A stretch of 64,000 bases of DNA from a virus (IMGVR_UViG_3300031419_000378:1-64000), one strand, 5' to 3'. Positions 40,323 to 55,097 are shown, counted from the stretch's first letter. A program made the numbers and translations. Notes: generated by a model not told the origin, from the letters alone.

Positions 40323-42725
40323 ATGACGACCTACAACACACGTAATCCGCTGGGTTCTTCCGCGGCGAAAGACTTATATGACAACGCGCAGAATCTCGAC
40401 CACTTTGTTAATGATTTAGATCGGGTCGAGTGGGCTGATCGGTTTGGTGTGCTGCGTAAAACCTGGTGGGGAATGGAAACCGATTTCCAGAACCAGATGG
40501 AAGACCAGGAGCACCGGTTTGTGGTTCAGCTGCATAATCAGGCCGACCGGTTCAACGTTTTTATTCAGAACTCTGGGTATTCAGTTGTCGGTGACTATGA
40601 GAATGGACCGCTCACGATTAATGAATACAACCAGATCATTCGGTACCAGGGCGAGTTTTATAAACTAACCGCCTCTACAGATATTCCATGGGCGACTACC
40701 GGTAACGATTCAACCTCATGGGAGGCAGACTCAGCGCATCTGGTAGCGATTGGTGATGCTGCATTGCGTCAGGAACTCGCTGCTGAGGATGGGCTGAAAC
40801 AGGTAGGGCAATGTCCCGACATTTACACGCTGCGTTCGATAGAGCCAGAGGTGGATGGACAGCGTATTTTTGTGCGCGAATATGCAATTCGCACTGGAAG
40901 AGGCGGTGGGACATTCATTTATTGGGAGGACGACATTACGTCTGCAGACGATGGTGGATACATCATTGTTACCAATGGCGGTAAGCGCTGGCGGCGCGAT
41001 TGTGACCCGAGTGATTTGCACATTGAGCATTTTGGCGCAATACCGGATGGAAAAACTGATTGTATCGATGCGATCAGAATGATGGACTCATGGAGTCAAT
41101 CTCAGGCCGATAATTGCAGCCTCATTGGTGTCCAGTTCCCTGGCGGCGATTTTGCTGTTTCATCATGGGACACCAGCGGCACATACCGCAGTCTGTTCAG
41201 GCTCGCAGGGGCTGGTGGTCAGTTTTATGGGTACAATAACCCGACAAAACTGATTTTTATTGGTGATGCCGGCTCGATTGCATTTTCAGTACAGTCGCGT
41301 CGCGTAGAAATCGTCAATCTCGAAGTTTATGGCCAGTATGATATTGACGACAAAGCCAGGGGTTTTTTCAAAAATATCTGCCCCGCAGGGCAGTATATTC
41401 GCGTCTCAAATTTTAGAGCATCCTATGTTGGGGGGCGGTTATTTCAGTTAATGGACACGCTGGATGCGAAATTTGACCAGTTTTATACGAGCTACACCTA
41501 TGACAATATCTTCAGAGTTCTGGCTTCGGGAACAACTTCGGGTGGCTGGAACCACTCCACAGCAATTGAACTAACGAATTTTAACATCCAGCATCACCTA
41601 TGTGAGGAAAGCCAGCAGGGGGCATTATTCATACCTAACTGCGGTCAGTCTCTGATATGGAATGGCTGGATAGAACACTGCACGTATCCGGGTAATCTCA
41701 CCATGGGGCAATGGAATATTCATTCGCTTTCGATGGAGACTAACACCAATCCCCTTTATATGTCTCAGAGCCGCTTCATGAATTACCTGTTCAGTAACCC
41801 TACTGGAAAAGGGATTGATGTTGACACGCAAATGACGGTCGCTTACGACACCGGAGAATATACTTCCCGGTCAGTATCCACCTATGAAAAGGGCTTTGGA
41901 GAATGGAACACACACGGATTATATTTAAACTCGCCGGTTCGTTTTGACTTTAATGCCACTCAGAAATATGTATCCAATATAACTTCTTCAGCCATCTGGG
42001 TATACGTGGGACATTTTTTCCTGCCAACGCTGGCTCAAACGATGAATATTAGGGTCAGTGGCAGGACAGGCTACAGCACAGCTTCAGCGCTGGCAGGTAT
42101 AGACGGCAGTGCTGTAATTTCCATTCAGAACAGGGGGTCAACAGCTTCAACCGTTTCCTGGCACTCACCCCGCAACGGGTGCATTCTCGATGTTGTTTAT
42201 ACACAACCCTATGAACGTGACACTCACATTTACGTAAAAATTCCGGCGTATTCTCGTGTAGGTTTCTTTGTAGAAACAAATGGCCTTTTGAGAAAAGACA
42301 CCGGTACGCCTACTTACATACAGTGGGATATGTCAACAGTAGCGGATATTTCCGCACTGAAAACGCAGGATGCTGTATCGACATGCAGTATGGGTACTAC
42401 AAGCGCAGGTCTGATCGCTGATGGCGAAAACAATCTGCTCTATCTCTATTCAGCTGCTGATACGGTCGGAGAGCTTGACGTGCTCAAGCTGGGCGTAAAC
42501 GACAAAATAAAAAGCTTACCTTTAATGTCAGGAGGTGCATGGAAACTTCCTGTCTATTACTTCGAAGATCTTCCTGATGCTGCCAGTAACTGGTGGTCAA
42601 TTTGTATCTGCAGAGCGTTTATCGGCGCGGATAACGTCGTTTATAAAACACAGGTCGTACACAGTGACGGAATCTACTGGCGACCACAGCAAAACCCATC
42701 AACATATATTATAGGGTCTGCATAA
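40323..42725 (+). CDS. Tailspike: phage head/tail-binding N-terminus + AmsF/WceF-like beta-helix
   Basis: MTTYNTRNPLGSSAAKDLYDNA N-terminus; HFGAIPDGKTDC, GVQFP.G, DTLDAKFDQ.Y, WNHSTAIELTNFN, CGQSLI.NGWIEHC recalled from AmsF/WceF. Confidence 0.7.
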   Translation: MTTYNTRNPLGSSAAKDLYDNAQNLDHFVNDLDRVEWADRFGVLRKTWWGMETDFQNQMEDQEHRFVVQLHNQADRFNVFIQNSGYSVVGDYENGPLTINEYNQIIRYQGEFYKLTASTDIPWATTGNDSTSWEADSAHLVAIGDAALRQELAAEDGLKQVGQCPDIYTLRSIEPEVDGQRIFVREYAIRTGRGGGTFIYWEDDITSADDGGYIIVTNGGKRWRRDCDPSDLHIEHFGAIPDGKTDCIDAIRMMDSWSQSQADNCSLIGVQFPGGDFAVSSWDTSGTYRSLFRLAGAGGQFYGYNNPTKLIFIGDAGSIAFSVQSRRVEIVNLEVYGQYDIDDKARGFFKNICPAGQYIRVSNFRASYVGGRLFQLMDTLDAKFDQFYTSYTYDNIFRVLASGTTSGGWNHSTAIELTNFNIQHHLCEESQQGALFIPNCGQSLIWNGWIEHCTYPGNLTMGQWNIHSLSMETNTNPLYMSQSRFMNYLFSNPTGKGIDVDTQMTVAYDTGEYTSRSVSTYEKGFGEWNTHGLYLNSPVRFDFNATQKYVSNITSSAIWVYVGHFFLPTLAQTMNIRVSGRTGYSTASALAGIDGSAVISIQNRGSTASTVSWHSPRNGCILDVVYTQPYERDTHIYVKIPAYSRVGFFVETNGLLRKDTGTPTYIQWDMSTVADISALKTQDAVSTCSMGTTSAGLIADGENNLLYLYSAADTVGELDVLKLGVNDKIKSLPLMSGGAWKLPVYYFEDLPDAASNWWSICICRAFIGADNVVYKTQVVHSDGIYWRPQQNPSTYIIGSA

Positions 42726-43588: not shown

Positions 43589-43707
43589 AAGGCGACGGCT
43601 CAGGCAATACAAATCCAATCTTCAAAGCAATCAATGTCCGCTTTGTGCCAGAAGCGGGCCTTGCTAAGATCAATTGAGTTAATTAACCAAACACAGATCA
43701 GTCCGTT

Positions 43708-44901
43708 TTATCTCATATTCGCAATATTTATTTCATCATATTCTTGGAGTTCAACCGTCACACGTATTATTGGAAATTTTCTAGGTCTATATTTACCAAT
43801 TACAGTTGTCTTGACAGGAGGATAAAGCTGCAAAATATCACTCACACCATTGAATAGAGGCCGAAATTTTTTTGATGAAACCATCCCTAATAATATTTTT
43901 TCCACTAAATAACTAAACGAAAGATGAGGATTTGTCTGCATGGTATAAAATAACAATTTAACAACAGATTGGCCGTTCAAGCCGAATGATTTCAATAGCG
44001 TAATTAGCTGAGGAGCATGAAGACACATTCTCGATGATATTATACGATTTTGAGTTGTGACACTAGATGGGAAATAGGACGGCTTTCCGAGTTGCTTGCT
44101 GCGGGCAAGAACATGGTGCACTACCCTTTCCCATGCGGAATTGAAATAGCGGGCGTTATCAAAATACTCCCCAACCTGACTGCCAGCGACATTATTATTC
44201 TGATAAAAACCACTGAGCAACGATCCTAGAGTTTTGTCACATGGATCATTCATTAAAGCTTTTCCAACCATCCATCGGCAAGGCCAGATCGGTGATGAGT
44301 TAGCATTTCTCGTCGAGGCAGCAACTCCATACCAAGCAAATCGACAGGGATCAGAATTTGGAGCCTTAGTTAAGTCAACATTACTCTCTTCAACTTTAGT
44401 TGTATTGGATGAATATGATATGTCAAATTTTGACCATTTACTATAAAGCTCAAATTCTTTATAGGTGCTATTTTTTTTCGAAGAATCATATTTCGTGACA
44501 GGAACATGGCACACTTGGCTTTCTTTTTCCGTTATTTTTGCCTGTAAAATAAACGCTTTATTTCTTTCGCTTAATACACTTTGTGATTGCATGTCAATAA
44601 TCTTTTCATCAAAGATAAACATTGCATCGCCAAGTTCAACTTTCTTATCAAATGGTTTTCCACTGCATAATTTTGCGTAAGGTGCCTTGTCAATCCAGCA
44701 CAACTGAGAGTTTACATCAATAAAAAGTCTGGGGTTTTTTTGTTTCTCATGCTTGTAAATTATTTCTGATAGTTCATCCAGAAAACGTGGTGTAAACAAT
44801 GCTCCAAGTTGTGTTAGCTCGCCGCCAGTTACATTCCGGCACATCTTATTTATAAGATCATCAATCTCTTTCGCCATATTCTCACCACTCACTTTAAACA
44901 C
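43708..44901 (-). CDS. Cassette: putative restriction-endonuclease-fold nuclease
   Basis: VELGDAMFI...KAFILQAKI resembles an E..D...QxK nuclease motif; AT-rich. Confidence 0.55.
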   Translation of the reverse strand: MFKVSGENMAKEIDDLINKMCRNVTGGELTQLGALFTPRFLDELSEIIYKHEKQKNPRLFIDVNSQLCWIDKAPYAKLCSGKPFDKKVELGDAMFIFDEKIIDMQSQSVLSERNKAFILQAKITEKESQVCHVPVTKYDSSKKNSTYKEFELYSKWSKFDISYSSNTTKVEESNVDLTKAPNSDPCRFAWYGVAASTRNANSSPIWPCRWMVGKALMNDPCDKTLGSLLSGFYQNNNVAGSQVGEYFDNARYFNSAWERVVHHVLARSKQLGKPSYFPSSVTTQNRIISSRMCLHAPQLITLLKSFGLNGQSVVKLLFYTMQTNPHLSFSYLVEKILLGMVSSKKFRPLFNGVSDILQLYPPVKTTVIGKYRPRKFPIIRVTVELQEYDEINIANMR

Positions 44902-44994
44902 CCCTTAACATTGTAAATTTTAAATAAAAATCAGACCATCATCATATAATAGTTTACAGACTTCTCTCTCTGCTACTACTGGAGGATAAGCTGA

Positions 44995-45357
44995 ATGCTT
45001 CTGGATAAGCTCAAATTACTCGAATGCAGCCTTCACGGTGATTGGCGCAACGATGGGGAGTGGCTTGAGCAGCTTCTCCACCCTGAATTTAAGGAGATTA
45101 CCCGGTCAGGCGTGATGGTTGACCGTTCAGTAACGATCTCGTCACTATTAAACGAGAAAAAGTCATCGCCTATTATAAGCAGCGATTTCTGGCTCACTGA
45201 AATGGGGAGTGGCTGCGCCATTCTTCACTACCGTACGTCTTGTGCTGACGGAAGCCATCCTGCATTGCGCTCCTCATGCTGGTTGTATTCGGAGGAAGGC
45301 CAGTGGACTCTGTTTTTTCATCAGGCCACGCCTGCAGCATGTAGCCTAGGTTTGTGA
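44995..45357 (+). CDS. Cassette: DUF4440/NTF2-like protein
   Basis: LE..LH...R.D...LEQLLHPEF.EI.RSG..ALRSS.W......W.L.FHQAT. Confidence 0.8.
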   Translation: MLLDKLKLLECSLHGDWRNDGEWLEQLLHPEFKEITRSGVMVDRSVTISSLLNEKKSSPIISSDFWLTEMGSGCAILHYRTSCADGSHPALRSSCWLYSEEGQWTLFFHQATPAACSLGL

Positions 45358-45474
45358 TCGAACACTATACTCGCTGGCAGGCTCATTAAACACTGCCAGT
45401 TGTCTGTTATTTGATGTAGTCATCAGTAAATGTCCGCTTTTCGCTCATAGCGGACCTTTAATCTTACATGTACG

Positions 45475-45663
45475 TTATCGATTTCCACAGACATCAACTT
45501 TTTCACCTGTAAGTCTTTCAACCATCTCCAATGCGTCCGGATCGCCATGCCAGGCCATGCAACTTAAACAGTCTCCGCCACAGTCAAAATTCAATGTGTC
45601 TGGTGTCTTACTCATTGGCTGATTACAGGTCTGGCAATTGCTTTCTTTCACTGGAAGTGGCAT
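45475..45663 (-). CDS. Cassette: small Cys-rich protein
   Basis: CQTC..DCGGDCLSCMA; lies between two B sites. Confidence 0.55.
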   Translation of the reverse strand: MPLPVKESNCQTCNQPMSKTPDTLNFDCGGDCLSCMAWHGDPDALEMVERLTGEKVDVCGNR

Positions 45664-45905
45664 CCGTTTTTAGATTTTTATTTCTATGTTACCTAACATA
45701 TCACCCTTAAATCCGTTCCTCACTCATAGCGGACTCTAGCCTGCCGTCAGTCCGCTTTGTGCCAGAAGCGGACGTTAGTAACGTCGGAGCTGCATAAATT
45801 AGAGGGGAGAAGGTTAAACAAAGGGATGAGATCACTTTCACAGTAAAAAAAGTAAATTTATGTTATCCATGACTATCTCATGCTATAAAAATCACCCATG
45901 GATAA

Positions 45906-47156
45906 ATGCACTTCGATACAAGGAACTATTGGATGGACTTTTTCGAAATTGACGAAGATACTGATTTAGACCTCCTTCATTTCAAATTTAAGGATCTGAA
46001 TAACCAGTTAGGGTACGTCGGTGCTAAAGAGGTTGTTTCTTCTTGGGGAAATGACTTTTATGATCGCGATAAAAAAGCTAAAAAAGAATTTCAAACATCG
46101 TTTCACTCTACTTTTTGGGAGCTCTATCTTCACGCAGTACTGAAGGAAATGAACTTCAAAGTTAGCGAAAAGCATAATCGACCAGACTTTATCGTCGAAG
46201 CCCCCAAAGAGATGTACATTGAAGCAGTAGTGTCAGAGATTAAAAAAGATGGTACTCCTGAAAAACTACGAACTCTAGAGGATGTTGAGGCCAACTTACG
46301 GCCGATTAAAACCAAGCGTGAGTTTACAGATATCATCGATGAGGCAATATCACGTCATTCTAACTCCCTAAAATCAAAGCTAGGAAAATACACTGGATAT
46401 ACACGCAAAGATAATACGCCTATTAAAGGATACGTCGATTGTAATTGGGTTTCGCCTAAGGCTCCATATATAATAGCCTTATCCTCCCATGACCAAATTG
46501 CCTATGGCAGAGAATTTATTTATTCCATGTTTGCTTTACTGTATGGGCACTATTACGACCCAGAAAATAAAGTATACACCAAAAAAAATAAAATTAAGAA
46601 ACCCGGCACTGATTCGGATTTAAATCTTGGAATTTTTTTTAACCCAGAATTCAAAGAAGTTTCAGCGGTTTTATTTTGCAACACACTGACATTAGGTAAA
46701 CTCTCTTCGCTACATAAATCAGAAAAAATAAATTTCGATACAGTTCTAAACATTAGATATTTGCAAGATGAACCGCATTTTCGTGTGCATGAAGTAACAC
46801 CAGAAAATCCCGAGCAATTACTTGATGGTCTGTACATATTCCATAACCCACTTGCCAAAAACAAAATAGATTTCGATCTATTTAATAAGTTAGCACAATT
46901 CTCTGTGGACGAATATGGGCCACATCAAATTGGCAATTATCCTCTACTAGTGTCTAGGTTTCACACCAATATGTTGCCTAGTTCAATAATCCCAAGTATA
47001 AAGACTGATGCTTTTTCAAGCTACAACCCAGAGTACTGTATGCGAGAACTCAAAAAAGAGAGCTGTCTTTTAAAGCCCGCTAAAAGCGAAAGGATCAGGC
47101 AAAAGAAAAAAAGGACAAATAAAATCGCGAAGACTTCCCGCAGAAAAAATAGATGA
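45906..47156 (+). CDS. Cassette: PD-(D/E)XK-like protein (family often mis-annotated 'glycosaminoglycan attachment site')
   Basis: F.DRD.K..KEFQTSF.STFWELYL.A..RPDFIV....YIEAV. Confidence 0.65.
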   Translation: MHFDTRNYWMDFFEIDEDTDLDLLHFKFKDLNNQLGYVGAKEVVSSWGNDFYDRDKKAKKEFQTSFHSTFWELYLHAVLKEMNFKVSEKHNRPDFIVEAPKEMYIEAVVSEIKKDGTPEKLRTLEDVEANLRPIKTKREFTDIIDEAISRHSNSLKSKLGKYTGYTRKDNTPIKGYVDCNWVSPKAPYIIALSSHDQIAYGREFIYSMFALLYGHYYDPENKVYTKKNKIKKPGTDSDLNLGIFFNPEFKEVSAVLFCNTLTLGKLSSLHKSEKINFDTVLNIRYLQDEPHFRVHEVTPENPEQLLDGLYIFHNPLAKNKIDFDLFNKLAQFSVDEYGPHQIGNYPLLVSRFHTNMLPSSIIPSIKTDAFSSYNPEYCMRELKKESCLLKPAKSERIRQKKKRTNKIAKTSRRKNR

Positions 47157-47421
47157 GAAACTTTAATTTCATCAACTATTTATCAGCGCTAAATCTTCCC
47201 TCACAGCAAACTTGATGACTACTAACCCTGTCTGCAGCGTGCCAGAAGCGGACAGGGTTGGACTGTATATAGTTCATGCTACCTCTACTTGCGTTACCAG
47301 ATAATTTAGTCACTACAAAGCTAAAAATCTTGGTAAATGATTTAGTCAGTCATTCAATCATCGCACGTTTATTGCATCACTTAGGTTGTATTAGAATAGC
47401 CATATTATTTAGGAGACGATC

Positions 47422-48312
47422 ATGTTTAAGTATGCCGTAAACTCGCTAGCAGATTATGTTTCAACAGTTACAGAAATAGTAAATGAAGTCGATGACATAT
47501 GGTTTAGAGGACATGCTTGCGCTTCATATAGATTAGCACCTTCGGTATTACGTGATACCGTTCCTTTAACTGATGCCAGAGGTAATAGGGTCGAAAATGG
47601 TCAGGTGATACGTTCAGAGGGCGGTCATGTAACAGGTCTTAGTCCCGAAAATATGTTTTATGAATTTAAGTCTCGAGCGGTTCCTTTTTTGAATCGAGAG
47701 CCCTCAAATAATTTTGAGTGGATGTTCTTGATGCAGCACTATGGCGTACCAACGAGGCTGTTAGACTGGACGACAAACGCCTTAGTTGCGTTATTCTTTG
47801 CTATCGAATCAAATCCTACCTCTGACGAAGAGAGGCATTACAACGAATGGCCCTCGCAAAATTTTATGGAAAGCGATGAGTTTTGCTCGGAAGGAGCTGC
47901 TGTTTTTGCCATAAGCCCATCAGAATTGAATTATCTAACAGTCTCAAACAGATCAAAAATTTATATTTGTGAAGAGGCTGATAAATGGAGTCATTACTTC
48001 GATCCAATGAATAAAAAAGATGGTTGTAATTTTCTTCCAATTGCAGTCCAATCAAGTCATATTGATACGAGAATAAGATCACAATCGGGCCACTTTACAT
48101 TACATGGTTCAAATACATGGGAATTAGACTATTATGATGAGCTTCGTAAAATTATACATAAAATATTTATACCATATGAAGTGGTACCCCAAATGCTTAA
48201 AGATTTGCAAGCTCTAGGTATAACGGAGTCATTTATATATCCGGGACTAGAATCGTTGTCGCGAGATATCAAAAGAAGCGAAGTTTTTAAATTCAACGGC
48301 AAAAAGCTTTAG
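47422..48312 (+). CDS. Cassette: FRG domain protein
   Basis: WFRGHA...L.PSV.R; LMQHYGVPTRLLDWT.N.LVALFFA; RIRSQSG.FT. Confidence 0.9.
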   Translation: MFKYAVNSLADYVSTVTEIVNEVDDIWFRGHACASYRLAPSVLRDTVPLTDARGNRVENGQVIRSEGGHVTGLSPENMFYEFKSRAVPFLNREPSNNFEWMFLMQHYGVPTRLLDWTTNALVALFFAIESNPTSDEERHYNEWPSQNFMESDEFCSEGAAVFAISPSELNYLTVSNRSKIYICEEADKWSHYFDPMNKKDGCNFLPIAVQSSHIDTRIRSQSGHFTLHGSNTWELDYYDELRKIIHKIFIPYEVVPQMLKDLQALGITESFIYPGLESLSRDIKRSEVFKFNGKKL

Positions 48313-48708
48313 CATTTCATTACAACCTGCTAGCCGCTGAACATGGAGTCAATGGCGGCTTATCGCTCATAGCGGACATTGGGCTGGATAGCGTCCGCAT
48401 TGTGCCAGAAGCGGACGTAGCTAACAATATTTTGTAAGGAGCAACTGGGGCAGTTCAGCGCGCCACAGTAATTCGCTGCGCAGGAAGTTAAGCTGCTTAT
48501 ATAAGTTTTTCCAAAAATTTAATTTTTAGCATCTGGCGTAAAGAAAACCTACGTATTGCGAAAGAAAATTCTAATTAGGGGCTTAGGTTAGGTAATTGTG
48601 AGATAGGAGGTGGGATTTAGGAATTTGGCTATATAAGGAATCGAATAGAATGGCTCTAAATATTAAGAGCCATCACAATACAAAGCACGCTACATTAAAA
48701 AAATAAAA

Positions 48709-49461
48709 TTAGCCATCATCTTGAATGGAACAAATACAATTTGCTAGCCGTGTCGGCTTTAAAAGTCGATAAGCATATTTTCCTTTTAAACTCTGAATAT
48801 GCCCTAACAATGTGTATCCACTACGTCTTGATAAGTTACTTTTTAAATCGGATTCAACTTTAGTATAGTCTTTCACAAAAGCATTGTTTGGTGACTCAAT
48901 CATTGCTTCTATAATATCAGCCAACCCTTTAAAACCCATTTTTAAATTATCTAGAGCGACCACATTTAACTCTTCAATGGCTAGCGTCAAGTCAGGACTT
49001 ATATCAGTTACACTATCACCTTGAAAAGCGACAACCCATTGCCCATGAGCAATCCTATTCCTGAGTGCACTTGGCGTTTTCACATAGTCAATGATTAATT
49101 TTTTAATATAAGTATCAGCGGAAGATAATTGAACGGAATTGAATGTTGGTGCTGATAAAACTTTAGCCTTAGCTACTTTTAAGCATCTACGCCATTGAGC
49201 TTCCATTCCTTTTAATTTTTTTATACTCTCTATTTCGCTTAATTCAAAACCATAAGGAGTATGAATTAATTTTGAGAATAACGCTTCAGTCCAAGCAGAA
49301 TAAATTAGCGAAAGAGTTTTCGTATGGATTCTTGCCTCAGTATCTCGATCATTTTTTAAGGCAAGATTCAAACTAATCTTAGCGATGCGCCAAGCTCGAT
49401 CTAATTCTTTTATGTTCTTTGTTTGAGATTGGAACACGATAAGTTGTTGGGCTCTATCCAT
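48709..49461 (-). CDS. Cassette: HEPN-domain putative RNase
   Basis: YSAWTEA (E motif) and LRNRIAHG (RxxxxH); downstream hairpin ATGGCTCT/AGAGCCAT near 48650. Confidence 0.75.
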   Translation of the reverse strand: MDRAQQLIVFQSQTKNIKELDRAWRIAKISLNLALKNDRDTEARIHTKTLSLIYSAWTEALFSKLIHTPYGFELSEIESIKKLKGMEAQWRRCLKVAKAKVLSAPTFNSVQLSSADTYIKKLIIDYVKTPSALRNRIAHGQWVVAFQGDSVTDISPDLTLAIEELNVVALDNLKMGFKGLADIIEAMIESPNNAFVKDYTKVESDLKSNLSRRSGYTLLGHIQSLKGKYAYRLLKPTRLANCICSIQDDG

Positions 49462-49521
49462 AACGCGCCTTAGGATGAAGTTTGCGACTCACAAGTATGG
49501 AAAAAACACTTAGAAAATATT

Positions 49522-49612
49522 TTTTCCATACCTGGAATTGAACCAGGAACCTCCTTCAAACCTCAATAGATGCAGATTTAAAGGCGCTCTACCAAATTTG
49601 AGCTATATGGGC
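49522..49612 (-). ncRNA. tRNA-like RNA with a 32-nt extended anticodon arm and broken acceptor end
   Basis: GCCCATA-TA-GCTC-AAATTTGGTA-GAGC-G-[CCTTTAAATC-TGCATCTATTGA-GGTTTGAAGG]-AGGTT-CCTGG-TTCAATT-CCAGG-TATGGAA; TTGACA on the minus strand at 49642-49647. Confidence 0.7.
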
Positions 49613-50035
49613 ATAGTTATAGTTACAAGCATGTTAAGTTTTGTCAAGTTTTTTTTCGGCAAACCAATGTTCAGCTATATAATGGCTGTAATCGACTAAA
49701 GCATGAGTAGGAAATTCAGACTGAAAACTATCATTAATGCTATAAAATAAAGCTAGCTGCGCTGACCTGTTTCCTGTTGTTTAATATGCCACGTTTTAAG
49801 TAAAACTTCATCATACTGCGAATGTCTTCTCTTCGCTCATAGCGGACATTGTGGCGGACATTGAGCCGGATAGCGTCCGCTTTGTGCCAGAAGCAGAAGT
49901 AACGCAGGATCAGTACAAGTTAATCAACGAAATCTTGGCCATAGCTTTTGCGTTATTAATCTAAATAATGGACATTCATGCCGGATGATTTGAAAATCGT
50001 AAGTCTATGATTTACTTATTCGGACATTAAAGTAG

Positions 50036-50467
50036 ATGAGCCAAAAATTAGAATTCATGTTGTTAGCGCTTGAAAAATCACGTCTAGCGCTCCCAGGCTG
50101 TAGACCAAATCCACCCGTTGGGTGCGTGATCGTCCATAACGGGCAGGTGGTTTCCGATGGCTTCACTCAACATCCAGGTCATCATCACGCAGAGATAGAC
50201 GCCATTTCAAAACTAGAGGTTCCAATTGGTGAATGTGAAATCTTTGTCACACTGGAACCATGCTCCTTTCAAGGAAGAACCCCATCCTGTGCATTGACTC
50301 TTGCTGAACTAAAACCACACCATGTCTATGTAGCCATTGAAGACCCGCATTCCAGAAACAATGGAGAAGGGCTGAGAATTTTAAAAAATGCAGGGGTCAG
50401 CTTTACCTTAGGAATTGGAAAAAGAGAAGTGGAGAAGTTCTTATCGCCTTATTTGGTGAAGTCCTGA
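50036..50467 (+). CDS. Cassette: stand-alone RibD-type zinc deaminase domain
   Basis: PNPPVGCVIV, HAE, VTLEPCSFQGRTPSC; no reductase domain. Confidence 0.8.
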   Translation: MSQKLEFMLLALEKSRLALPGCRPNPPVGCVIVHNGQVVSDGFTQHPGHHHAEIDAISKLEVPIGECEIFVTLEPCSFQGRTPSCALTLAELKPHHVYVAIEDPHSRNNGEGLRILKNAGVSFTLGIGKREVEKFLSPYLVKS

Positions 50468-50700
50468 CAGTTTAAATACAACAAAACAGTGCCGGCCATG
50501 AAAATTATGTCCGCTCTTCACTCAAAGCGGACAAAGGGCTGGTTAGCGTCCGCTTAGTGCCAACAGCGGACCTAGATAATCGCCAGTGGTAATTGCTGAT
50601 AATCCTCATCAGTCCAGATAGTAGCCTTAAGGTTGTGCCATCATGTTCATGAACGTTAAAGTTGCTCAAAATGATTATAGGTAAGATTAGGAAGTAACTT

Positions 50701-51168
50701 ATGGCACGTCGAAGTGAATTAAAAGGTATAGCGATTGCTATTAATGGGAGTTTTGTAAGCAGAAACAACGACTTAAATGGATACTGGTCAATAGGCAAGA
50801 TTAAATCATTCGCTCTTGATAACGGCCTTACCTCAGTGACTTTTCCTCTCACCCTTCCTATGACCAACTCCGCATCAAATCTGCAAAACCATACGGTTAA
50901 CCGCTACGCCAAAATGCTCAAGAGCCTATTAAATAAACAAAAATTACCTAGCCTCTGGGTAAGCAACGCGGTCATTACAATCGACTTTGATGCTAAAGCG
51001 GGACATGCAAAATTGTATGAAGACACCACCTCAGGCGACCTTTTCCAATGCACCTGTAAGATAACTGATGATATTGACCGAGATTACTCATCCATAATGT
51101 ATGGGCGTTGCTTGCCGCATTCTGTAGTTCGAGAGTTAAAATCGACTCGAAATTCACCATCATTTTAA
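50701..51168 (+). CDS. Cassette: hypothetical protein
   Basis: 155 aa; stop codon 1 nt before the B site at 51170. Confidence 0.65.
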   Translation: MARRSELKGIAIAINGSFVSRNNDLNGYWSIGKIKSFALDNGLTSVTFPLTLPMTNSASNLQNHTVNRYAKMLKSLLNKQKLPSLWVSNAVITIDFDAKAGHAKLYEDTTSGDLFQCTCKITDDIDRDYSSIMYGRCLPHSVVRELKSTRNSPSF

Positions 51169-51281
51169 CTTCCGCTCCTCGCTCATAGCGGACATCGGTC
51201 TGCACATCTGAGCACTGCCGCCTGTAGCGTCTTATACTCATTTCAGGAGTTGAAAAACGCTGGTCAAAATGGAGCATTGCA

Positions 51282-51659
51282 ATGGCCTTTCAGAACCCCG
51301 CCCAGAACTACACTGAAACGCGCCTGAACTTGGGCGATCTGGTCTATCTTTCACCTTACTCAACCTATCTGATGCGTAGCGAAAGCGACTGTCCCGGTGC
51401 CGGGATTGTCAAAGGATCTGTGCTGGCCATTGATCGCGCGCTGACACCAGCGCACGGTCAGCTTATCGTTGCTGAGTTTGACGGGGAGCTTTCGCTGAGG
51501 CGGCTGCTTCTCAATCCTGTTCCCGCCTTGCAGGCGCTGGACGCGGACGAGACTATAACGCTGCTTGATGTAAGCCAGGCGCTTCCTGTGTGGGGTGTGG
51601 TCGCTTATGCCCTTACCGATATAGCGGGAGTGGGATTCAACGGACCAGCAGGAGAATAA
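51282..51659 (+). CDS. umuD: UmuD'-like (HumD-type) protein lacking the cleavable N-arm and catalytic Ser/Lys
   Basis: Starts MAFQNPAQNY (equivalent to GFPSPAADY); S24 fold but SDCP replaces GDSM and SLRRL replaces TVKKL. Confidence 0.75.
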   Translation: MAFQNPAQNYTETRLNLGDLVYLSPYSTYLMRSESDCPGAGIVKGSVLAIDRALTPAHGQLIVAEFDGELSLRRLLLNPVPALQALDADETITLLDVSQALPVWGVVAYALTDIAGVGFNGPAGE

Positions 51660-51661
51660 TT

Positions 51662-51892
51662 ATGTTTGCGCTGGCCGACGCCAATAATTTTTACGCCTCC
51701 TGCGAAACTGTATTCAGACCCGACCTTCGTGGCAAACCCATTGTCGTTGTGTCCAACAACGACGGCTGCGTTATCGCACGCTCAGCGGAGGCAAAGCGCA
51801 TGGGCATCAAAATGGCCGCTCCGCTGTTTAAAAATGAGCGTTACTTTCGTGAGAACGGCGTTCATGTATTCAGCTCCAACTACGAGCTGTAG
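51662..51892 (+). pseudogene. umuC: 5' fragment of umuC interrupted at SSNYEL|Y
   Basis: MFALADANNFYASCETVFRPDL.GKP.VV.SNNDGC.IARS.EAK..GIKM..FSSNYEL*; unrelated sequence begins at about 51892. Confidence 0.9.
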
Positions 51893-51962
51893 TAAGTTAA
51901 GTGGAATGCAACATTGATTGGGTAAACTTTGAGCAGCAATGCTGTTGTCAGAGGTAAACACA

Positions 51963-52946
51963 ATGATGATTCCACCAAACGAGGATGTGCTGGTACTGGC
52001 GGAGCGCTGGCTGAAACTGCTGTCCGACCTGGGCCGGGCTCAGACCACACTCTCCGCCTACCGCAGTGCCCTCAGCCATTATTTTGCATTCTGCAGCCAG
52101 AACAGCATTGAACCTGAAAAGGCCCGGTTTGAAGACCTGGCCGCCTACATCAGCCCTCAGTTACCCGGCATGCCTTTTCCCGCAGCCAGCGCCACGCTCC
52201 AGCTGCGCCTTTCTGTGATCCGTCTCTGGTATGACTTTCTGCTTTATCAGGATATATGCAGTCTCAATCCGCTACCCCGTGCGGGTTTACCCGGCGTCAT
52301 TTATACCGGGCGGGGGCTGGTCCCGCGTATCACCCGCTTACCCGTAATACCTGATGATGAGCAATGGCTGAAATTTCTTAAACATGTTTCAACTGCCTCC
52401 CTGCGTGACCGGCTGATGCTCGCGCTTGCCTATTTTGGTGCACTCCGCCGTGCAGAGGTGACAGCCCTGGCGCTTGAGGATATCGACCCTGCGCATCGCC
52501 TGATCCGTATCCGCCCGGAAACAACGAAAAGCAGGCGGGAAAGAATTATTTGTTATGGTCCGGACGTGACGCCGGTACTGGCAAATCATTTTCGGCAGCT
52601 GAAGCAGGCTGGCTGGACACAGGGTGCGCTGTTCCGTTCATTTTCTGATCGTAATTATGGCACACCCCTTTCTGTGTGGAACTGGAGTAAAACCGTACGC
52701 AGATGGGCTCTGGATACCGGGCTTCCACAGATTACAACACATACCTTCCGCCATCTTCGTCTGACCCATCTGGCGCGGGCCGGCTGGAAACTGCATGAGC
52801 TGGCGACTTATGCAGGACACAGGGATCTGCGCACCACACAAATTTATATCCATCTGTCAGGTTACGATCTGGCTGGCCGGATAGCCGCAGCCGTGGCTGA
52901 AACCGACAGGAAAGTCGCCGGACTTATTTTTCAGGAGCCTTACTGA
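51963..52946 (+). CDS. Tyrosine recombinase (XerC/D-size, Tn554 TnpA-like)
   Basis: GALRRAEV (R), TTK, HTFRH (HxxR), AGH..TTQIY (H, Y); GAGG RBS before ATG 51963. Confidence 0.9.
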   Translation: MMIPPNEDVLVLAERWLKLLSDLGRAQTTLSAYRSALSHYFAFCSQNSIEPEKARFEDLAAYISPQLPGMPFPAASATLQLRLSVIRLWYDFLLYQDICSLNPLPRAGLPGVIYTGRGLVPRITRLPVIPDDEQWLKFLKHVSTASLRDRLMLALAYFGALRRAEVTALALEDIDPAHRLIRIRPETTKSRRERIICYGPDVTPVLANHFRQLKQAGWTQGALFRSFSDRNYGTPLSVWNWSKTVRRWALDTGLPQITTHTFRHLRLTHLARAGWKLHELATYAGHRDLRTTQIYIHLSGYDLAGRIAAAVAETDRKVAGLIFQEPY

Positions 52947-55069
52947 TGAATGAAAAAACGGCCAGAGTCACTTATGTGCCTTTTAAACGCACAGATTATC
53001 AGCTGAGAGATGCGTTAAGTCCTGAGGAAAGAGACGCAATAAGTACAGGCTACCGGCGGTCAGCTGCGCTCGACCAGCCAGGTTCTCTGCCGTTTTTGCT
53101 GTTGCCTCTGCAGGACATTGCCTCACGCAGCAGTATCAGTGCCAGACTTGTCAGAATTACCATACTTACAGTTCTTGCAGAAACACACCGGGCGGGTCAG
53201 CCCTGCTGGCTGTGGACGCAGGAAAGGTGGTTAACGCTCTGTCAGCAACACAGTTCCGGCAGGCCTTTGCTTGCTGCTTTTGCCTTTCATCTCGGCCCGT
53301 TTCCCTCTCCGTTAAGCCTGCCAGTGCATGGTGCACCTTCGCTGTACGCCAGTGCCATCTATGGCCGGATTTTTGTCAGCCATGAACTTAACCGGCTGAC
53401 AGACGTTCTGATCTCACTGGGATATGTCGGGCAGAATCAGAAACACAATCTGTCGGGTATGCTGGGTGTTCTGATGCTGATGAATAATGATCCGCAACTT
53501 GAAAATTTTACGACAGAACTGCTGTGGCGGGGGCAGAACTGTCACGACCGGGGGATCGCAAGAGTTACAGGAAAAATATCCTATGCACTTGCTGCTATGG
53601 GGATTATAAAAAGCCCCCTGAGAATGCGTAATTATAAAGAGTGGCATGAAAAGCCAACAGAAGGTATCGCGCCTGACTGGGCCCGATGGTGCCGGAAGTG
53701 GCGGGAAACGTCGGTACTCCGCCCCCGCTCCAGAGAAACTCAGTACAGTTTCATTCTCCGCTGCGGCCTGTGGCTTGCCCGGGAAAAGCCGGAAATATGC
53801 GAACCGTCTGACTGGACAATGGAAACCTGCGCCAGCTTTATTGCAATGGTTGGCCGACTGAAAGTGGACGAGCTGTCACTGGACACAAATAAAGGGGGCA
53901 GGCGTTCAAACCGCTCAGGAAAGCCCCTGATGCCGCATTCCCGCAGCCGGTTTGTTTATGCAGTTCGCCGTTTTATGCTTGATTATGAAAGCTGGGGCTG
54001 GGGGAAATTAAAATTCAGTCCGGCCCGTCATTTGTCCTCGCCTGACACACCGCTGTTTCGTCAGGGCGTGAATCCCCGCGTCATTGATGATCCGGTCTGG
54101 CTGAAACTGGTCTGGGCAAGCCTGAATCTGCGTAAAGAAGATCTGCTGAGCGAAATTCATTATCCCCTGTCTATGCTTCAGGCTATGGCGGTTATCTGGA
54201 CACATGCAGGGCTGCGACAGAACGAGCTGATGCGTCTGACAATGAACTGTATTACTCCACAGGCGGATGACATTCTGCAGGAAAACGGTGGTGCTATCCC
54301 GGCGGGCACTTTGTGCTATCTCAGCGTGCCGGCCGGCAAAACCTCTAAAGCTTTTGTTAAGCCGGTCTCGGCTGTAGTGAAAAAATATGTAGATATCTGG
54401 CTCAGTGAGCGTCCTCAGGAGCAGGCAGCACTTACGGATGAACGCACCGGCGAAAAAGTTCGTTTCCTGTTTCAGAATCGGGGTAAACCGGTGGGCAGGG
54501 ACATAATAAATCTCACTGTTATTCCGGTTCTCTGCGCCAGAGCAGGAATGCCTGCGGAAGATTCACGCGGTCCCATTACAAGCCACCGAGGCCGTGCTTC
54601 TGCCGTTACAGCACTGGCCAGTGTTACCGGGGGCATGTCTTTACATGAGCTGATGCAGTGGTCAGGTCACTCATCCGCACAGTCGACAATGCATTATATC
54701 CGCATCCGTCCGACTCAGCTGGCAGCATCGTTCGTAAAAGCAGACAGGGTCGCTCATATGATCAGCGTGCTGATTGACCACGATCCGGAAGCCGCGAGTC
54801 TGACCGGCCCCTCAACGTACTATGATCTGGGTGACTCATACTGCACGAACCCCTTCTGGAGCAGCTGTCAGCACCGGATGGCCTGCATCGGTTGCGATTT
54901 TAACCTGCTCAAACAGAGCGCGCGCGGACTGATACTGGAAAGCAAAGCCTCTGTCAGACGTTACCTTGAGGAAGTTCCGCTCACACCCGATGAGAGAGCC
55001 ATCGTGGAACAGGACGCAGAGAAAATTGAACAGGCTCTTAAAAGGTTGTCCCTCAAACCCGAAGGGTAA
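52946..55069 (+). CDS. Large tyrosine recombinase with C-terminal Cys cluster (Tn554 TnpB-like)
   Basis: AGLRQNEL, GKT, SHRGR, SGH..STMHY; YCTNPFWSSCQHRMACIGC; TGATG coupling to upstream gene. Confidence 0.88.
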   Translation: MNEKTARVTYVPFKRTDYQLRDALSPEERDAISTGYRRSAALDQPGSLPFLLLPLQDIASRSSISARLVRITILTVLAETHRAGQPCWLWTQERWLTLCQQHSSGRPLLAAFAFHLGPFPSPLSLPVHGAPSLYASAIYGRIFVSHELNRLTDVLISLGYVGQNQKHNLSGMLGVLMLMNNDPQLENFTTELLWRGQNCHDRGIARVTGKISYALAAMGIIKSPLRMRNYKEWHEKPTEGIAPDWARWCRKWRETSVLRPRSRETQYSFILRCGLWLAREKPEICEPSDWTMETCASFIAMVGRLKVDELSLDTNKGGRRSNRSGKPLMPHSRSRFVYAVRRFMLDYESWGWGKLKFSPARHLSSPDTPLFRQGVNPRVIDDPVWLKLVWASLNLRKEDLLSEIHYPLSMLQAMAVIWTHAGLRQNELMRLTMNCITPQADDILQENGGAIPAGTLCYLSVPAGKTSKAFVKPVSAVVKKYVDIWLSERPQEQAALTDERTGEKVRFLFQNRGKPVGRDIINLTVIPVLCARAGMPAEDSRGPITSHRGRASAVTALASVTGGMSLHELMQWSGHSSAQSTMHYIRIRPTQLAASFVKADRVAHMISVLIDHDPEAASLTGPSTYYDLGDSYCTNPFWSSCQHRMACIGCDFNLLKQSARGLILESKASVRRYLEEVPLTPDERAIVEQDAEKIEQALKRLSLKPEG

Positions 55070-55073
55070 AACG

Positions 55074-55097
55074 GGCCGCTATGTGCCAGAAGCGGAC
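55074..55097 (+). repeat. Class A palindromic site 4 nt after the recombinase stop
   Basis: GGCCGCTA-TGTGCCAG-AAGCGGAC, same class and orientation as array sites. Confidence 0.88.

Follow-up and report, generated by a model that had tools for sequence, protein, structure and literature searches.

The accessory genes in a 64,000-nucleotide stretch of viral DNA (IMGVR_UViG_3300031419_000378:1-64000, hereafter the window) are arranged as modules bounded by two classes of 24-bp site, A and B. The sites follow a regular grammar, crossovers map to defined positions inside them, and modules have been exchanged at these sites between close relatives. We consider it probable that one site-specific recombination system uses A and B as its core-type sites and transfers modules among plasmids, prophages and genomic islands. 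More tentatively, giving the full proposal slightly less than even weight, we suggest a widespread Proteobacterial module exchange system, independent of integrons, in which a 200-residue tyrosine recombinase acts on two heterospecific 24-bp sites.

Both classes have an 8-8-8 layout with identical arms. An A site consists of the arms GTCCGCTT and AAGCGGAC around the spacer TGTGCCAG, and a B site carries the same arms around the spacer YTCGCTCA. This layout, inverted arms around an asymmetric 8-bp spacer that would hold the exchange points, is that of a predicted core site of the lox/FRT type. The window contains seven sites of each class, every one in the + orientation: A sites start at 43636, 45750, 47230, 48393, 49875, 50548 and 55074 (a further one lies beyond the window, at 69540 of the record, also +), and B sites start at 45432, 45711, 48354, 49824, 50509 and 51170, with a degenerate copy at 47188. 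Together they delimit seven units, six reading A-genes-B and one B-gene-B. When reverse-complemented, B agrees with A in 20 of its 24 positions; B thus resembles an inverted A, and the B-15 bp-A composite is an imperfect 63-bp palindrome. In the spacer, three of eight positions consistently set A apart from inverted B. The linker between B and A is 15 bp at 45711, 48354 and 50509, 18 bp at the degenerate B of 47188, and 27 bp at 49824, where a 12-bp tandem duplication places GCGGACATTG twice. The motif GRGCYGGWTAGC is common to three of the window linkers. A preliminary description of this DNA had claimed the two spacer classes, the predominance of A-gene-B units, these junction lengths with their duplication, and a motif common to three linkers, all of which were recovered here; it does not mention the likeness of B to an inverted A.

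The array starts about 900 bp past a prophage tail-fibre gene with a solo A site (43636-43659, +; right arm AAGCGGGC). Module 1 (43660-45431) carries a 397-aa ORF of no family on the - strand and a 120-aa DUF4440-like ORF on the + strand; positions 44978-45458 align at 96.5% identity with a P. dispersa plasmid as far as the B site, which has perfect arms (45432-45455, +). Module 2 (45456-45710, -; a 62-aa ORF) is the B-gene-B unit, and many large Pantoea plasmids carry the block B-gene-B-15-A at about 91% identity. A B-15 bp-A composite (45711-45773, +) leads into module 3 (45774-47187, +), whose 416-aa protein matches the anti-phage family PD-T7-5 (E 1e-61). The degenerate B (spacer TTCCCTCA), its 18-bp linker and an A site with left arm GTCTGCAG (47188-47253, +) precede module 4 (47254-48353, +), which encodes a 296-aa FRG-domain protein, the PADLOC candidate PDC-S15; an E. 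coli plasmid copy is 96% identical, and the match ends within the B site. Beyond the next B-15 bp-A composite (48354-48416, +), module 5 (48417-49823, -) contains a 250-aa ORF and a tRNA-like RNA at 49523-49612; an Rfam search over 43-56 kb returned this match, one sub-threshold sRNA match and nothing further. The B-27 bp-A composite (49824-49898, +) is followed by module 6 (49899-50508, +), encoding a 143-aa cytidine/dCMP deaminase-fold protein, the last B-15 bp-A composite (50509-50571, +) and module 7 (50572-51169, +; a 155-aa ORF). The array ends with the B site at 51170-51193 (+), after which umuD and the 5' part of umuC (51282-51891, +) belong to a backbone connector that runs from this B site to the A site at 69540 of the record. 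The gene modules here are mostly anti-phage genes. The array adjoins a siphovirus-type prophage; no prophage att repeats of 14 bp or more were found from the record's left end to the array, and a search of a phage collection with 36-52 kb as query gave no match.

The sites are widespread. A 20-base A pattern, expected by chance about once in the 596-Gb genome collection, was present there at at least 120 loci, as well as at 109 viral loci and in 39 of 121 Erwiniaceae genomes, where a reversed control gave 0 matches; the repeats are therefore not due to chance. Chromosomes and plasmids of Pantoea, E. coli, Klebsiella, Providencia and other hosts carry sites, and A sites are near-identical in sequence across phyla. 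Short-spaced pairs were ordered B-linker-A in 97 cases and A-linker-B in none, and 97 long B-B steps were counted. Linkers range from 9 to 27 bp; among 92 non-redundant composites, 50 have a linker of 14-16 bp and 25 one of 18 bp. Thus the fixed 15-bp spacing put forward in the preliminary description holds at three junctions of the window, while elsewhere the lengths are bimodal, at about 15 and 18 bp, which half refutes the idea of a conserved spacing. Its claim that right arms are better conserved than left ones gave way to overall near-equality across sites (mean mismatches of 0.63 left and 0.53 right for A, 0.88 and 1.06 for B), and the motif it saw after A sites was reduced to a weak ATTGCTAAC consensus. 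Enterobacterales genomes hold few sites (1-18 per genome), clustered and co-oriented; in the 530-kb plasmid pPag3 about 32 sites, in a single orientation, all lie inside 49-98.5 kb. Where site orientation flips in the P. allii chromosome, neither a dif-like site nor a GC-skew switch was found. In one Pseudolabrys metagenome-assembled genome there are 322 exact-arm copies, with several spacer types and at most three per intergenic gap, a pattern more suggestive of a dispersed repeat family, but the sites are co-oriented on each contig.

The positions of crossover were mapped in P2-like phages, in which A and B bracket a variable slot between the tail-fibre-assembly gene G and the sheath gene FI. 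In 19 P2-like prophage loci, with flanks matching Peduovirus records, A follows G, B precedes FI, and at least 11 different cargos lie between. Positions 1-16 of A (left arm and spacer) and the right arm of B (AAGCAGAC) are constant with the phage, whereas the segment that goes with the cargo starts at A position 17 and ends at B position 12 or, in some cases, 16. This split places the crossovers inside both spacers and makes A...B the unit of exchange. Over the comparisons, exchange points fall between positions 8 and 17 of A and between positions 12 and 17 of B. The same repeats are annotated at the P2 slot in GenBank records AJ512676-AJ512683; in AJ512683.1 the 'left inverted repeat' ends exactly at A and the 'right inverted repeat' begins with B.

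Similar exchanges were found between plasmids. Between the near-identical Pantoea plasmids pPag3 and pPV989-508, it is whole A...B segments that vary, and the common blocks, 97-99% identical, have B at the start and A at the end. From 50521 (position 13 of B) to the next B, module 7 is 100% identical in pCB1C, where its context is different. Additionally, the HTH-namA module of pPag3 has a 98% identical copy in the umuC element of pPag2, extending from A position 1 to B position 24. The P2 slot and the pPag3/pPV989-508 differences support the cassette-exchange reading first suggested for the window, with A and B as distinct, non-equivalent module boundaries. Neither an excised circle nor an empty/filled pair was observed; the public runs consisted of contigs only. 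Joints in those runs, with sides of 20-28 letters, were short-sided repeat matches that correspond to B-linker-A junctions of other arrays, and so they give no evidence of excision.

A small tyrosine recombinase of 200 residues is physically linked to hybrid forms of these sites. Elsewhere its gene is found within arrays, with hybrid B and A sites on either side. At all 11 gammaproteobacterial loci examined, an A spacer and right arm with a foreign left arm are found 17-25 bp past the stop codon; Erwiniaceae and E. coli loci also have a hybrid B upstream (right arm TAAGGGAC), which Providencia and marine loci do not have. Alphaproteobacterial homologues have an analogous downstream half-site, and Xanthobacteraceae homologues of 49-65% identity occur in genomes without GTCCGC-type sites and have differing downstream half-sites. 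The positions aligned to the catalytic Arg, His-x-x-Arg, His and Tyr of XerD are invariant, and profile searches matched Xer and invertase models only, far below cut-off. The gene is present in 888 of 5426 complete E. coli genomes (16%) and on 443 plasmids. It flanks 3 of 120 A-site loci among the matches listed, and 3 of 109, against a chance expectation far below one. The family is absent from the window's 77-kb record, and no member lies near most arrays or near any P2 slot examined. In Erwiniaceae, eight of ten carriers have A sites, the genome-level correlation is weak, and the genome richest in A sites (13) has no such gene. The 200-residue protein is the most likely candidate for the enzyme that would catalyse the A/B reaction.

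The preliminary description had instead looked to the two recombinases next to the array, possibly with one site class for each. These genes, for proteins of 335 and 707 aa (51939-55069, +), are part of an element in umuC that may be Tn554-like; the Tn554 family has two adjacent tyrosine recombinases of TnpA and TnpB size and inserts site-specifically without long inverted ends. An A site only 5 bp past the 707-aa gene (55074-55097, +) marks the start of the ars/cop cargo of this element, and the cargo stops at an IS-disrupted B lying some 30 nt inward of the right terminus (record 68403-68418). The position of this A site, and the bracketing of cargo as A...B both in this record and in pPag2, favour a role for the pair. 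Against it, the element has termini of its own (CATTCCACATAA) and its insertion in umuC recurs in many Pantoea plasmids, with an uninterrupted umuC in one public run (X4). Moreover, two related elements (L006 and L127) have no A site, plasmid H1 has the pair without an array, and pPag3, the P2 phages and an E. coli island have arrays without the pair. With the integron-integrase model TIGR02249 the 335-aa protein alone gave a match, scoring 59 bits where the cut-off is 265. Since pair and arrays occur apart, and a different recombinase is tied physically to the sites, we conclude that the 335- and 707-aa proteins belong to a separate umuC element and are very probably not the A/B enzymes; that each serves one site class is highly improbable.

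We propose the following scheme for the A/B reaction. The identical inverted arms would let the same protein bind both sites, while their differing spacers and opposite polarity would prevent one end of a module from replacing the other. A module would comprise the right arm of A through the left arm and spacer of B, and the connector would keep the left arm and spacer of A and the right arm of B; this connector could be a 15- or 18-bp linker, the recombinase gene, umuDC as in the window, or a whole P2 phage genome. Exchange would proceed by crossovers within the spacers, either as A x A plus B x B through a cointegrate and its resolution, or as excision and insertion between sites of the same class. 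The enzyme would most likely be the 200-residue recombinase, which comprises a catalytic domain only. Because the gene is missing from the record, the window array would be served in trans or would be a passive store, as are integron cassette clusters without an integrase. The conservation of spacers across phyla fits a homology-dependent reaction on double strands; the substrate is thus presumed to be double-stranded, and A and B would not recombine with each other. B spacer positions 9-12 differ between modules, which is hard to square with strict spacer identity and agrees with one exchange point where the spacer meets the right arm.

An alternative is an integron-like single-strand route, in which a cassette circle with one site (B, or a folded B-linker-A hairpin) would join an A platform by exchange of one strand at a single boundary, with replication resolving the product. 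Such a route would let A x B occur with no need for spacer identity. B spacers travel with the cargo in the P2 slot, which puts the junction at 16|17; the backbone halves joined give a complete A and the cargo ends joined a complete B. Runs of B-gene-B, as at 45432-45734 and in the 97 long B-B steps, are expected from repeated insertion at one A, and the 63-71-nt composite folds into a single long hairpin interrupted by an internal loop (at 50505, z -4.5 and -5.9). However, the folding of other composites is weak or gives two distinct hairpins (z -1.6 to -2.5), linkers can be anywhere from 9 to 27 bp long, and in P2 the two sites function kilobases apart, so a composite hairpin is not needed. 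Furthermore, it is sequence and not structure that is conserved: double changes in arm pairs occur at the level of independence (9 observed for 6.1 expected, for example), changes that break a pair on one side are much more frequent, and covariation within sites shows no excess of compensatory changes. The suggestion that the sites act as attC-like single-stranded structures is thereby weakened, at least for a purely structural site, and we regard this route as unlikely.

Two other readings are less probable still. The sites could be intergenic palindromes of the REP/BIME kind, selfish or structural, and mere hot spots of homologous or microhomology recombination; the 322 copies in Pseudolabrys, the lack of a recombinase near most sites and an IS110-family element that targets B sites, as such elements do REPs, point this way. 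But RAYT (PF01797) is absent from the 322-copy genome, which may be incomplete, and from G001, G004 and pPag3, so that three of four enterobacterial genomes or records searched lack it; in one Pantoea genome the gene has an internal stop codon and lies far from the sites. The clustering of few, co-oriented sites in Enterobacterales (a 50-kb stretch in pPag3), the strict B-then-A order, the near-identity of A across phyla, breakpoints within 8-bp spacers and a dedicated recombinase gene with hybrid sites also speak against this reading, to which we give little credence. A FimB-like switch, in which modules lying between A and B, sites of opposite polarity, would be flipped by the small recombinase, would account for the 20/24 likeness of B to inverted A, for weak NCBIfam matches to tyrosine-type DNA invertases and for module genes in both orientations. 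Yet none of 20 shared modules with unambiguous sites was inverted relative to its own sites, and the three consistently different spacer positions separate A from inverted B, making inversion barely credible.

The arrays recall several known systems. Like integrons, they are co-oriented arrays of small accessory-gene units with imperfectly palindromic boundaries, with a tyrosine recombinase gene joined to hybrid sites, many arrays without recombinase, and cargo rich in defence and GNAT-type genes. Unlike integrons, they have two site classes conserved in sequence, whereas attC is conserved in folded structure, with paired R/L boxes and extrahelical bases; the recombinase has 200 residues, gives no match to TIGR02249 and lies within the array rather than at one end, whereas the IntI integrase next to an integron array has an extra domain specific to integrons. 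Integron cassettes are mostly promoterless, co-oriented single ORFs read from Pc, whereas modules here hold one or two genes on either strand, with their own regulators and regulator-enzyme pairs. The pdif modules of Acinetobacter plasmids are similarly bounded by two oppositely oriented sites in many plasmid contexts. In contrast, pdif sites are 28-bp XerC-6 bp-XerD sequences used by host Xer proteins; A and B have an 8-8-8 layout with identical arms and do not resemble dif (11-6-11), no dif-like sequence was found across the array region of P. allii, neighbouring modules are parted by two sites rather than one common site, and a dedicated small recombinase is linked to them. With REP/BIME and REPIN-RAYT sequences the sites share short intergenic palindromes, inverted doublets, a possible long hairpin and IS110-family targeting, and they differ in that no relevant RAYT was found, that in Enterobacterales they are few, clustered and co-oriented, and that exchange breakpoints fall inside them.

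The closest precedent is the P2 Z/fun locus, whose inverted repeats in P2-like coliphages a review credits to Nilsson, Karlsson and Haggard-Ljungquist in 2004 (Mol Biol Evol 21:1). Those repeats have the same sequences as A and B, bracket the insert between G and FI that we found in 19 loci and, like A and B, flank homologous genes in bacterial genomes. That case concerned one slot in one phage family without a known enzyme. The present data add arrays of several modules, joined by B-linker-A junctions, that lie on plasmids, on islands and beside a siphovirus-type prophage; they also map the spacer classes as crossover regions and put forward a candidate recombinase. In our literature search no paper matched the exact site sequence and keyword searches turned up neither the arrays nor the small recombinase; both the arrays and the likely recombinase appear to be undescribed so far.

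Anti-phage hotspots in P2-like phages and E. coli islands have been studied heavily. In two hotspot studies that were searched (PMC9122126, PMC13586616), neither a site nor an enzyme is named for the swapping. Our results now tie swapping at such hotspots to two defined 24-bp sites with crossovers in their spacers and nominate a small, easily testable recombinase. If the proposal is true, one system underlies the classic P2 Z/fun defence hotspot, the defence arrays of E. coli genomic islands (16% of complete genomes carrying the recombinase), the 50-kb array on a large Pantoea plasmid, cargo swapping in a umuC-targeting transposon and very large arrays in some Alphaproteobacteria. If confirmed, it would be a second general gene-cassette system beside integrons and a natural two-site cassette-exchange tool, acting on self-contained modules that include fosA-type resistance and defence genes, and reaching plasmids, phages, islands and transposons in Enterobacterales and Alphaproteobacteria.

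Comparison of P2-like prophages showed where the exchanges fall. At 19 P2-like prophage loci, the slot between the tail-fibre-assembly gene G and the sheath gene FI has the form A...cargo...B, with cargo of 0.8-2.9 kb and at least 11 kinds. On the phage side, the left arm and spacer of A (GTCCGCTC TGTGCCAG) and the right arm of B (AAGCAGAC) are constant. Position 17 of A, the cargo, the left arm of B and positions 9-12 of the B spacer vary together, and with two of the cargos B spacer positions 15-16 vary too. These boundaries place the exchange points inside both spacers and make A...B the exchanged unit. Three further comparisons agree. The blocks shared by the Pantoea plasmids pPag3 and pPV989-508 are 97-99% identical and each run from a B to an A, with two variable segments between them, each reaching from where an A stops to where a B begins. 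Furthermore, module 7 of the window is 100% identical to DNA of the comparison plasmid pCB1C from position 13 of the B site at 50509 up to the B that follows, although the DNA on either side is unrelated, and the HTH-namA module of pPag3 was copied into pPag2 from A position 1 through B position 24. None of 20 shared modules was inverted relative to its sites. The cassette-exchange grammar proposed in the preliminary description is thus supported by both the P2 slots and the plasmid pairs.

In the window the sites were located by direct reading of 44.5-52 kb and by pattern scans, which identified two kinds of 24-bp palindrome with common 8-bp arms. A sites (GTCCGCTT TGTGCCAG AAGCGGAC) start at 43636, 45750, 47230, 48393, 49875, 50548 and 55074, and B sites (GTCCGCTT YTCGCTCA TAGCGGAC) at 45432, 45711, 48354, 49824, 50509 and 51170, with a degenerate B copy at 47188; all were found on the plus strand, and every A and B site has the same orientation. 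The linkers of the B-linker-A composites measure 15 bp (three), 27 bp with an internal 12-bp duplication (one) and 18 bp (one). The two spacer classes, the composites and these linker lengths are as first described. The reverse complement of B is identical to A at 20 of 24 positions; B thus approximates an inverted copy of A, which makes the 63-bp composite an imperfect palindrome.

The array extends from about 900 bp past a tail-fibre gene up to umuD. The left 43 kb (1-43000) is a siphovirus-type prophage by gene content, with an integrase (420-1658), terminase, portal, major head, tape measure and an EPS-depolymerase-like tail fibre (40323-42725). No prophage att repeat of at least 14 bp was found between the left end of the record and the array. 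The modules are AT-rich, and their products include a PD-T7-5 anti-phage protein, an FRG/PDC-S15 protein and a deaminase-fold protein. One module also contains a tRNA-like RNA on the minus strand (49523-49612; Rfam tRNA, 34.7 bits; no call by ARAGORN), upstream of a 250-aa ORF that has no family match.

The sites are widespread. The 20-base A pattern occurs at at least 120 loci in the genome collection and on 109 viral contigs; among the matches listed are Pantoea, Erwinia, Klebsiella, Enterobacter, Citrobacter, Leclercia and Idiomarina, as well as many Xanthobacteraceae and Hyphomicrobiales metagenome-assembled genomes. The pattern was present in 39 of 121 Erwiniaceae genomes, and a reversed control pattern had no match in the same 121. 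On pPag3 (530 kb), all of the approximately 32 sites lie within 49-98.5 kb in a single orientation. Across all fetched loci, there were 97 cases of a B with an A after it within 45 bp and none of the reverse order, so the order within the proposed B-15 bp-A composite held. Its fixed length did not, since linker lengths have a bimodal distribution: of 92 composites, 50 have 14-16 bp (15 bp in 26 of these) and 25 have 18 bp. The linker motif reads ATTGGSCYG. The fetched loci show about equal conservation of the left and right arms, contrary to the earlier statement that right arms are better conserved. A fosA-like (FosA8-type) gene forms an A-gene-B-A module present in two copies in each of two large Pantoea vagans plasmids (L193, 2534-3201 and 14004-14675; pPag3 record, 81946-82614 and 64858-65525).

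A Pseudolabrys metagenome-assembled genome (G003) carries 322 exact-arm GTCCGCT-N10-AGCGGAC sites, for example on its loci L137 and L139, with at least three spacer types (TGTGCCAA, TGGGTCAT, ACCCCCGA). They stand between genes as doublets or triplets (at most three per gap) and are co-oriented within each contig. Either a very large array or an expansion of REP-like repeats could account for them.

Additional features of the P2 slot bear on its history. The nine bases on the outer side of A (AATCTGACA) form a perfect inverted repeat with the nine beyond B (TGTCAGATT; for example L303, 84-115 and 1743-1775), and the two backbone halves, if joined, would form one extended palindromic A site. 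In the P2-like Yersinia phage P37 (L304, 852-984), G adjoins FI with an ordinary terminator between them, and both the A/B sites and the inverted repeats of about 100 bp around A and B are absent. Thus the whole repeat-cargo-repeat unit is an insertion relative to P37, and the P2 "backbone" halves may in turn belong to an earlier insertion.

The sites could be recognized as duplex or as a folded single strand. The composite at 50505 can fold into a single long hairpin (z -4.5 and -5.9); other copies form two small hairpins or fold weakly. Among 441 non-redundant sites, double changes in paired arm positions were about as frequent as expected under independence, and one-sided changes that break a pair were several times more common than double changes. 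Because the sequence of A and B, including both spacers, is conserved across phyla, and because the two sites also work kilobases apart in P2, we favour recognition by protein of duplex core sites that would need shared spacers. As to the position of exchange, there may instead be a single point at the boundary of spacer and right arm, as in integrons, which would account both for the travel of B spacers with the cargo and for the B-gene-B runs.

The preliminary description suggested that each recombinase might use one site class. The genes for the neighbouring pair of tyrosine recombinases, of 335 and 707 aa (51939-55069), split umuC, which breaks at ...NYEL|YGDM... (window 51891/51892 and record 68465) and picks up again at record position 68466, past the terminus CATTCCACATAA. 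A contig from a public sequencing run (X4) carries umuC on uninterrupted at 51891 and represents an empty site. The same pair occurs at the same place with other cargo on many Pantoea plasmids. It is present without an array on plasmid H1, and arrays are present without it on pPag3, in P2-like phages and in an E. coli island. The assignment was therefore wrong: these distributions indicate that the pair is part of a separate element and does not comprise the A/B enzymes. A...B brackets the cargo of the element in this record as it does in pPag2, where the cargo is another one; we read this as module exchange inside the element rather than as a sign that its recombinases act on A or B.

A 1.5-kb IS110-family element (425-aa DEDD transposase) separates the left arm of a B site from its spacer in two unrelated insertions, one on an Enterobacter plasmid (L061, 2272-3764) and one at the right end of the umuC element of the record (68360-68420, equivalent to L142, 4360-4420). 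A copy 99.8% identical is present in P. piersonii. This element appears to target B sites specifically.

A better candidate for the A/B enzyme, on genomic context, is a 200-residue protein encoded inside an array on pVag1, which consists of a tyrosine recombinase catalytic domain only. The residues that align with the XerD catalytic Arg, His-x-x-Arg, His and Tyr are invariant. Upstream of the pVag1 gene is a hybrid B, with canonical left arm and spacer and the right arm TAAGGGAC; downstream is a hybrid A, in which a foreign left arm in a GGGCTG/CAGCCC hairpin is followed by CTGTGCCAG and the canonical right arm. The downstream hybrid was found at 11 of 11 gammaproteobacterial loci examined (Erwiniaceae, an E. 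coli IncY plasmid, a Providencia island and marine contigs), and the upstream hybrid at the Erwiniaceae and E. coli loci but not at the Providencia and marine loci. An E. coli chromosomal island reads A-[reverse transcriptase]-B-18-A-[ORF]-B'-int-A'-[dynamin pair]-B. A pseudogenised copy occupies the same place in pPag3, and the gene is intact in, for example, P. vagans LMG 24199. Downstream of alphaproteobacterial homologues (49-65% identity) lie a hairpin and, beyond it, a half-site whose arm differs; in the Pseudolabrys genome the gene is a fragment only. Database members of the family number more than 7,900, and it is carried by 443 plasmids and by 888 of 5426 complete E. coli genomes. Searches of family models and the literature found no curated family or publication naming it. 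The weaknesses of the candidate are clear: it is absent from this record and from the Erwiniaceae genome richest in A sites, and it lies near only 6 of 229 A-site loci among the matches listed.

Site-specific exchange at these repeats is an idea about twenty years old, for one phage slot. In GenBank entries AJ512676-AJ512683 the P2 Z region is annotated as flanked by "left" and "right inverted repeats", and in AJ512683.1 the left repeat ends, and the right begins, exactly at A and B; a review credits the repeats to Nilsson et al. (2004). Two hotspot studies, of 2022 and 2026 (PMC9122126, PMC13586616), say nothing of palindromes, inverted repeats or site-specific recombination at those loci. 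Integrons and Acinetobacter pdif modules function in a similar way, but the features that define either system are not found here. In the literature we found no description of the multi-module arrays with B-linker-A junctions, of the two spacer classes as crossover regions, of the spread to plasmids, islands, transposon cargo and Alphaproteobacteria, or of the small recombinase. Together, the comparisons support the exchange grammar; the earlier enzyme assignment was wrong, and the small recombinase is a better candidate for the enzyme.
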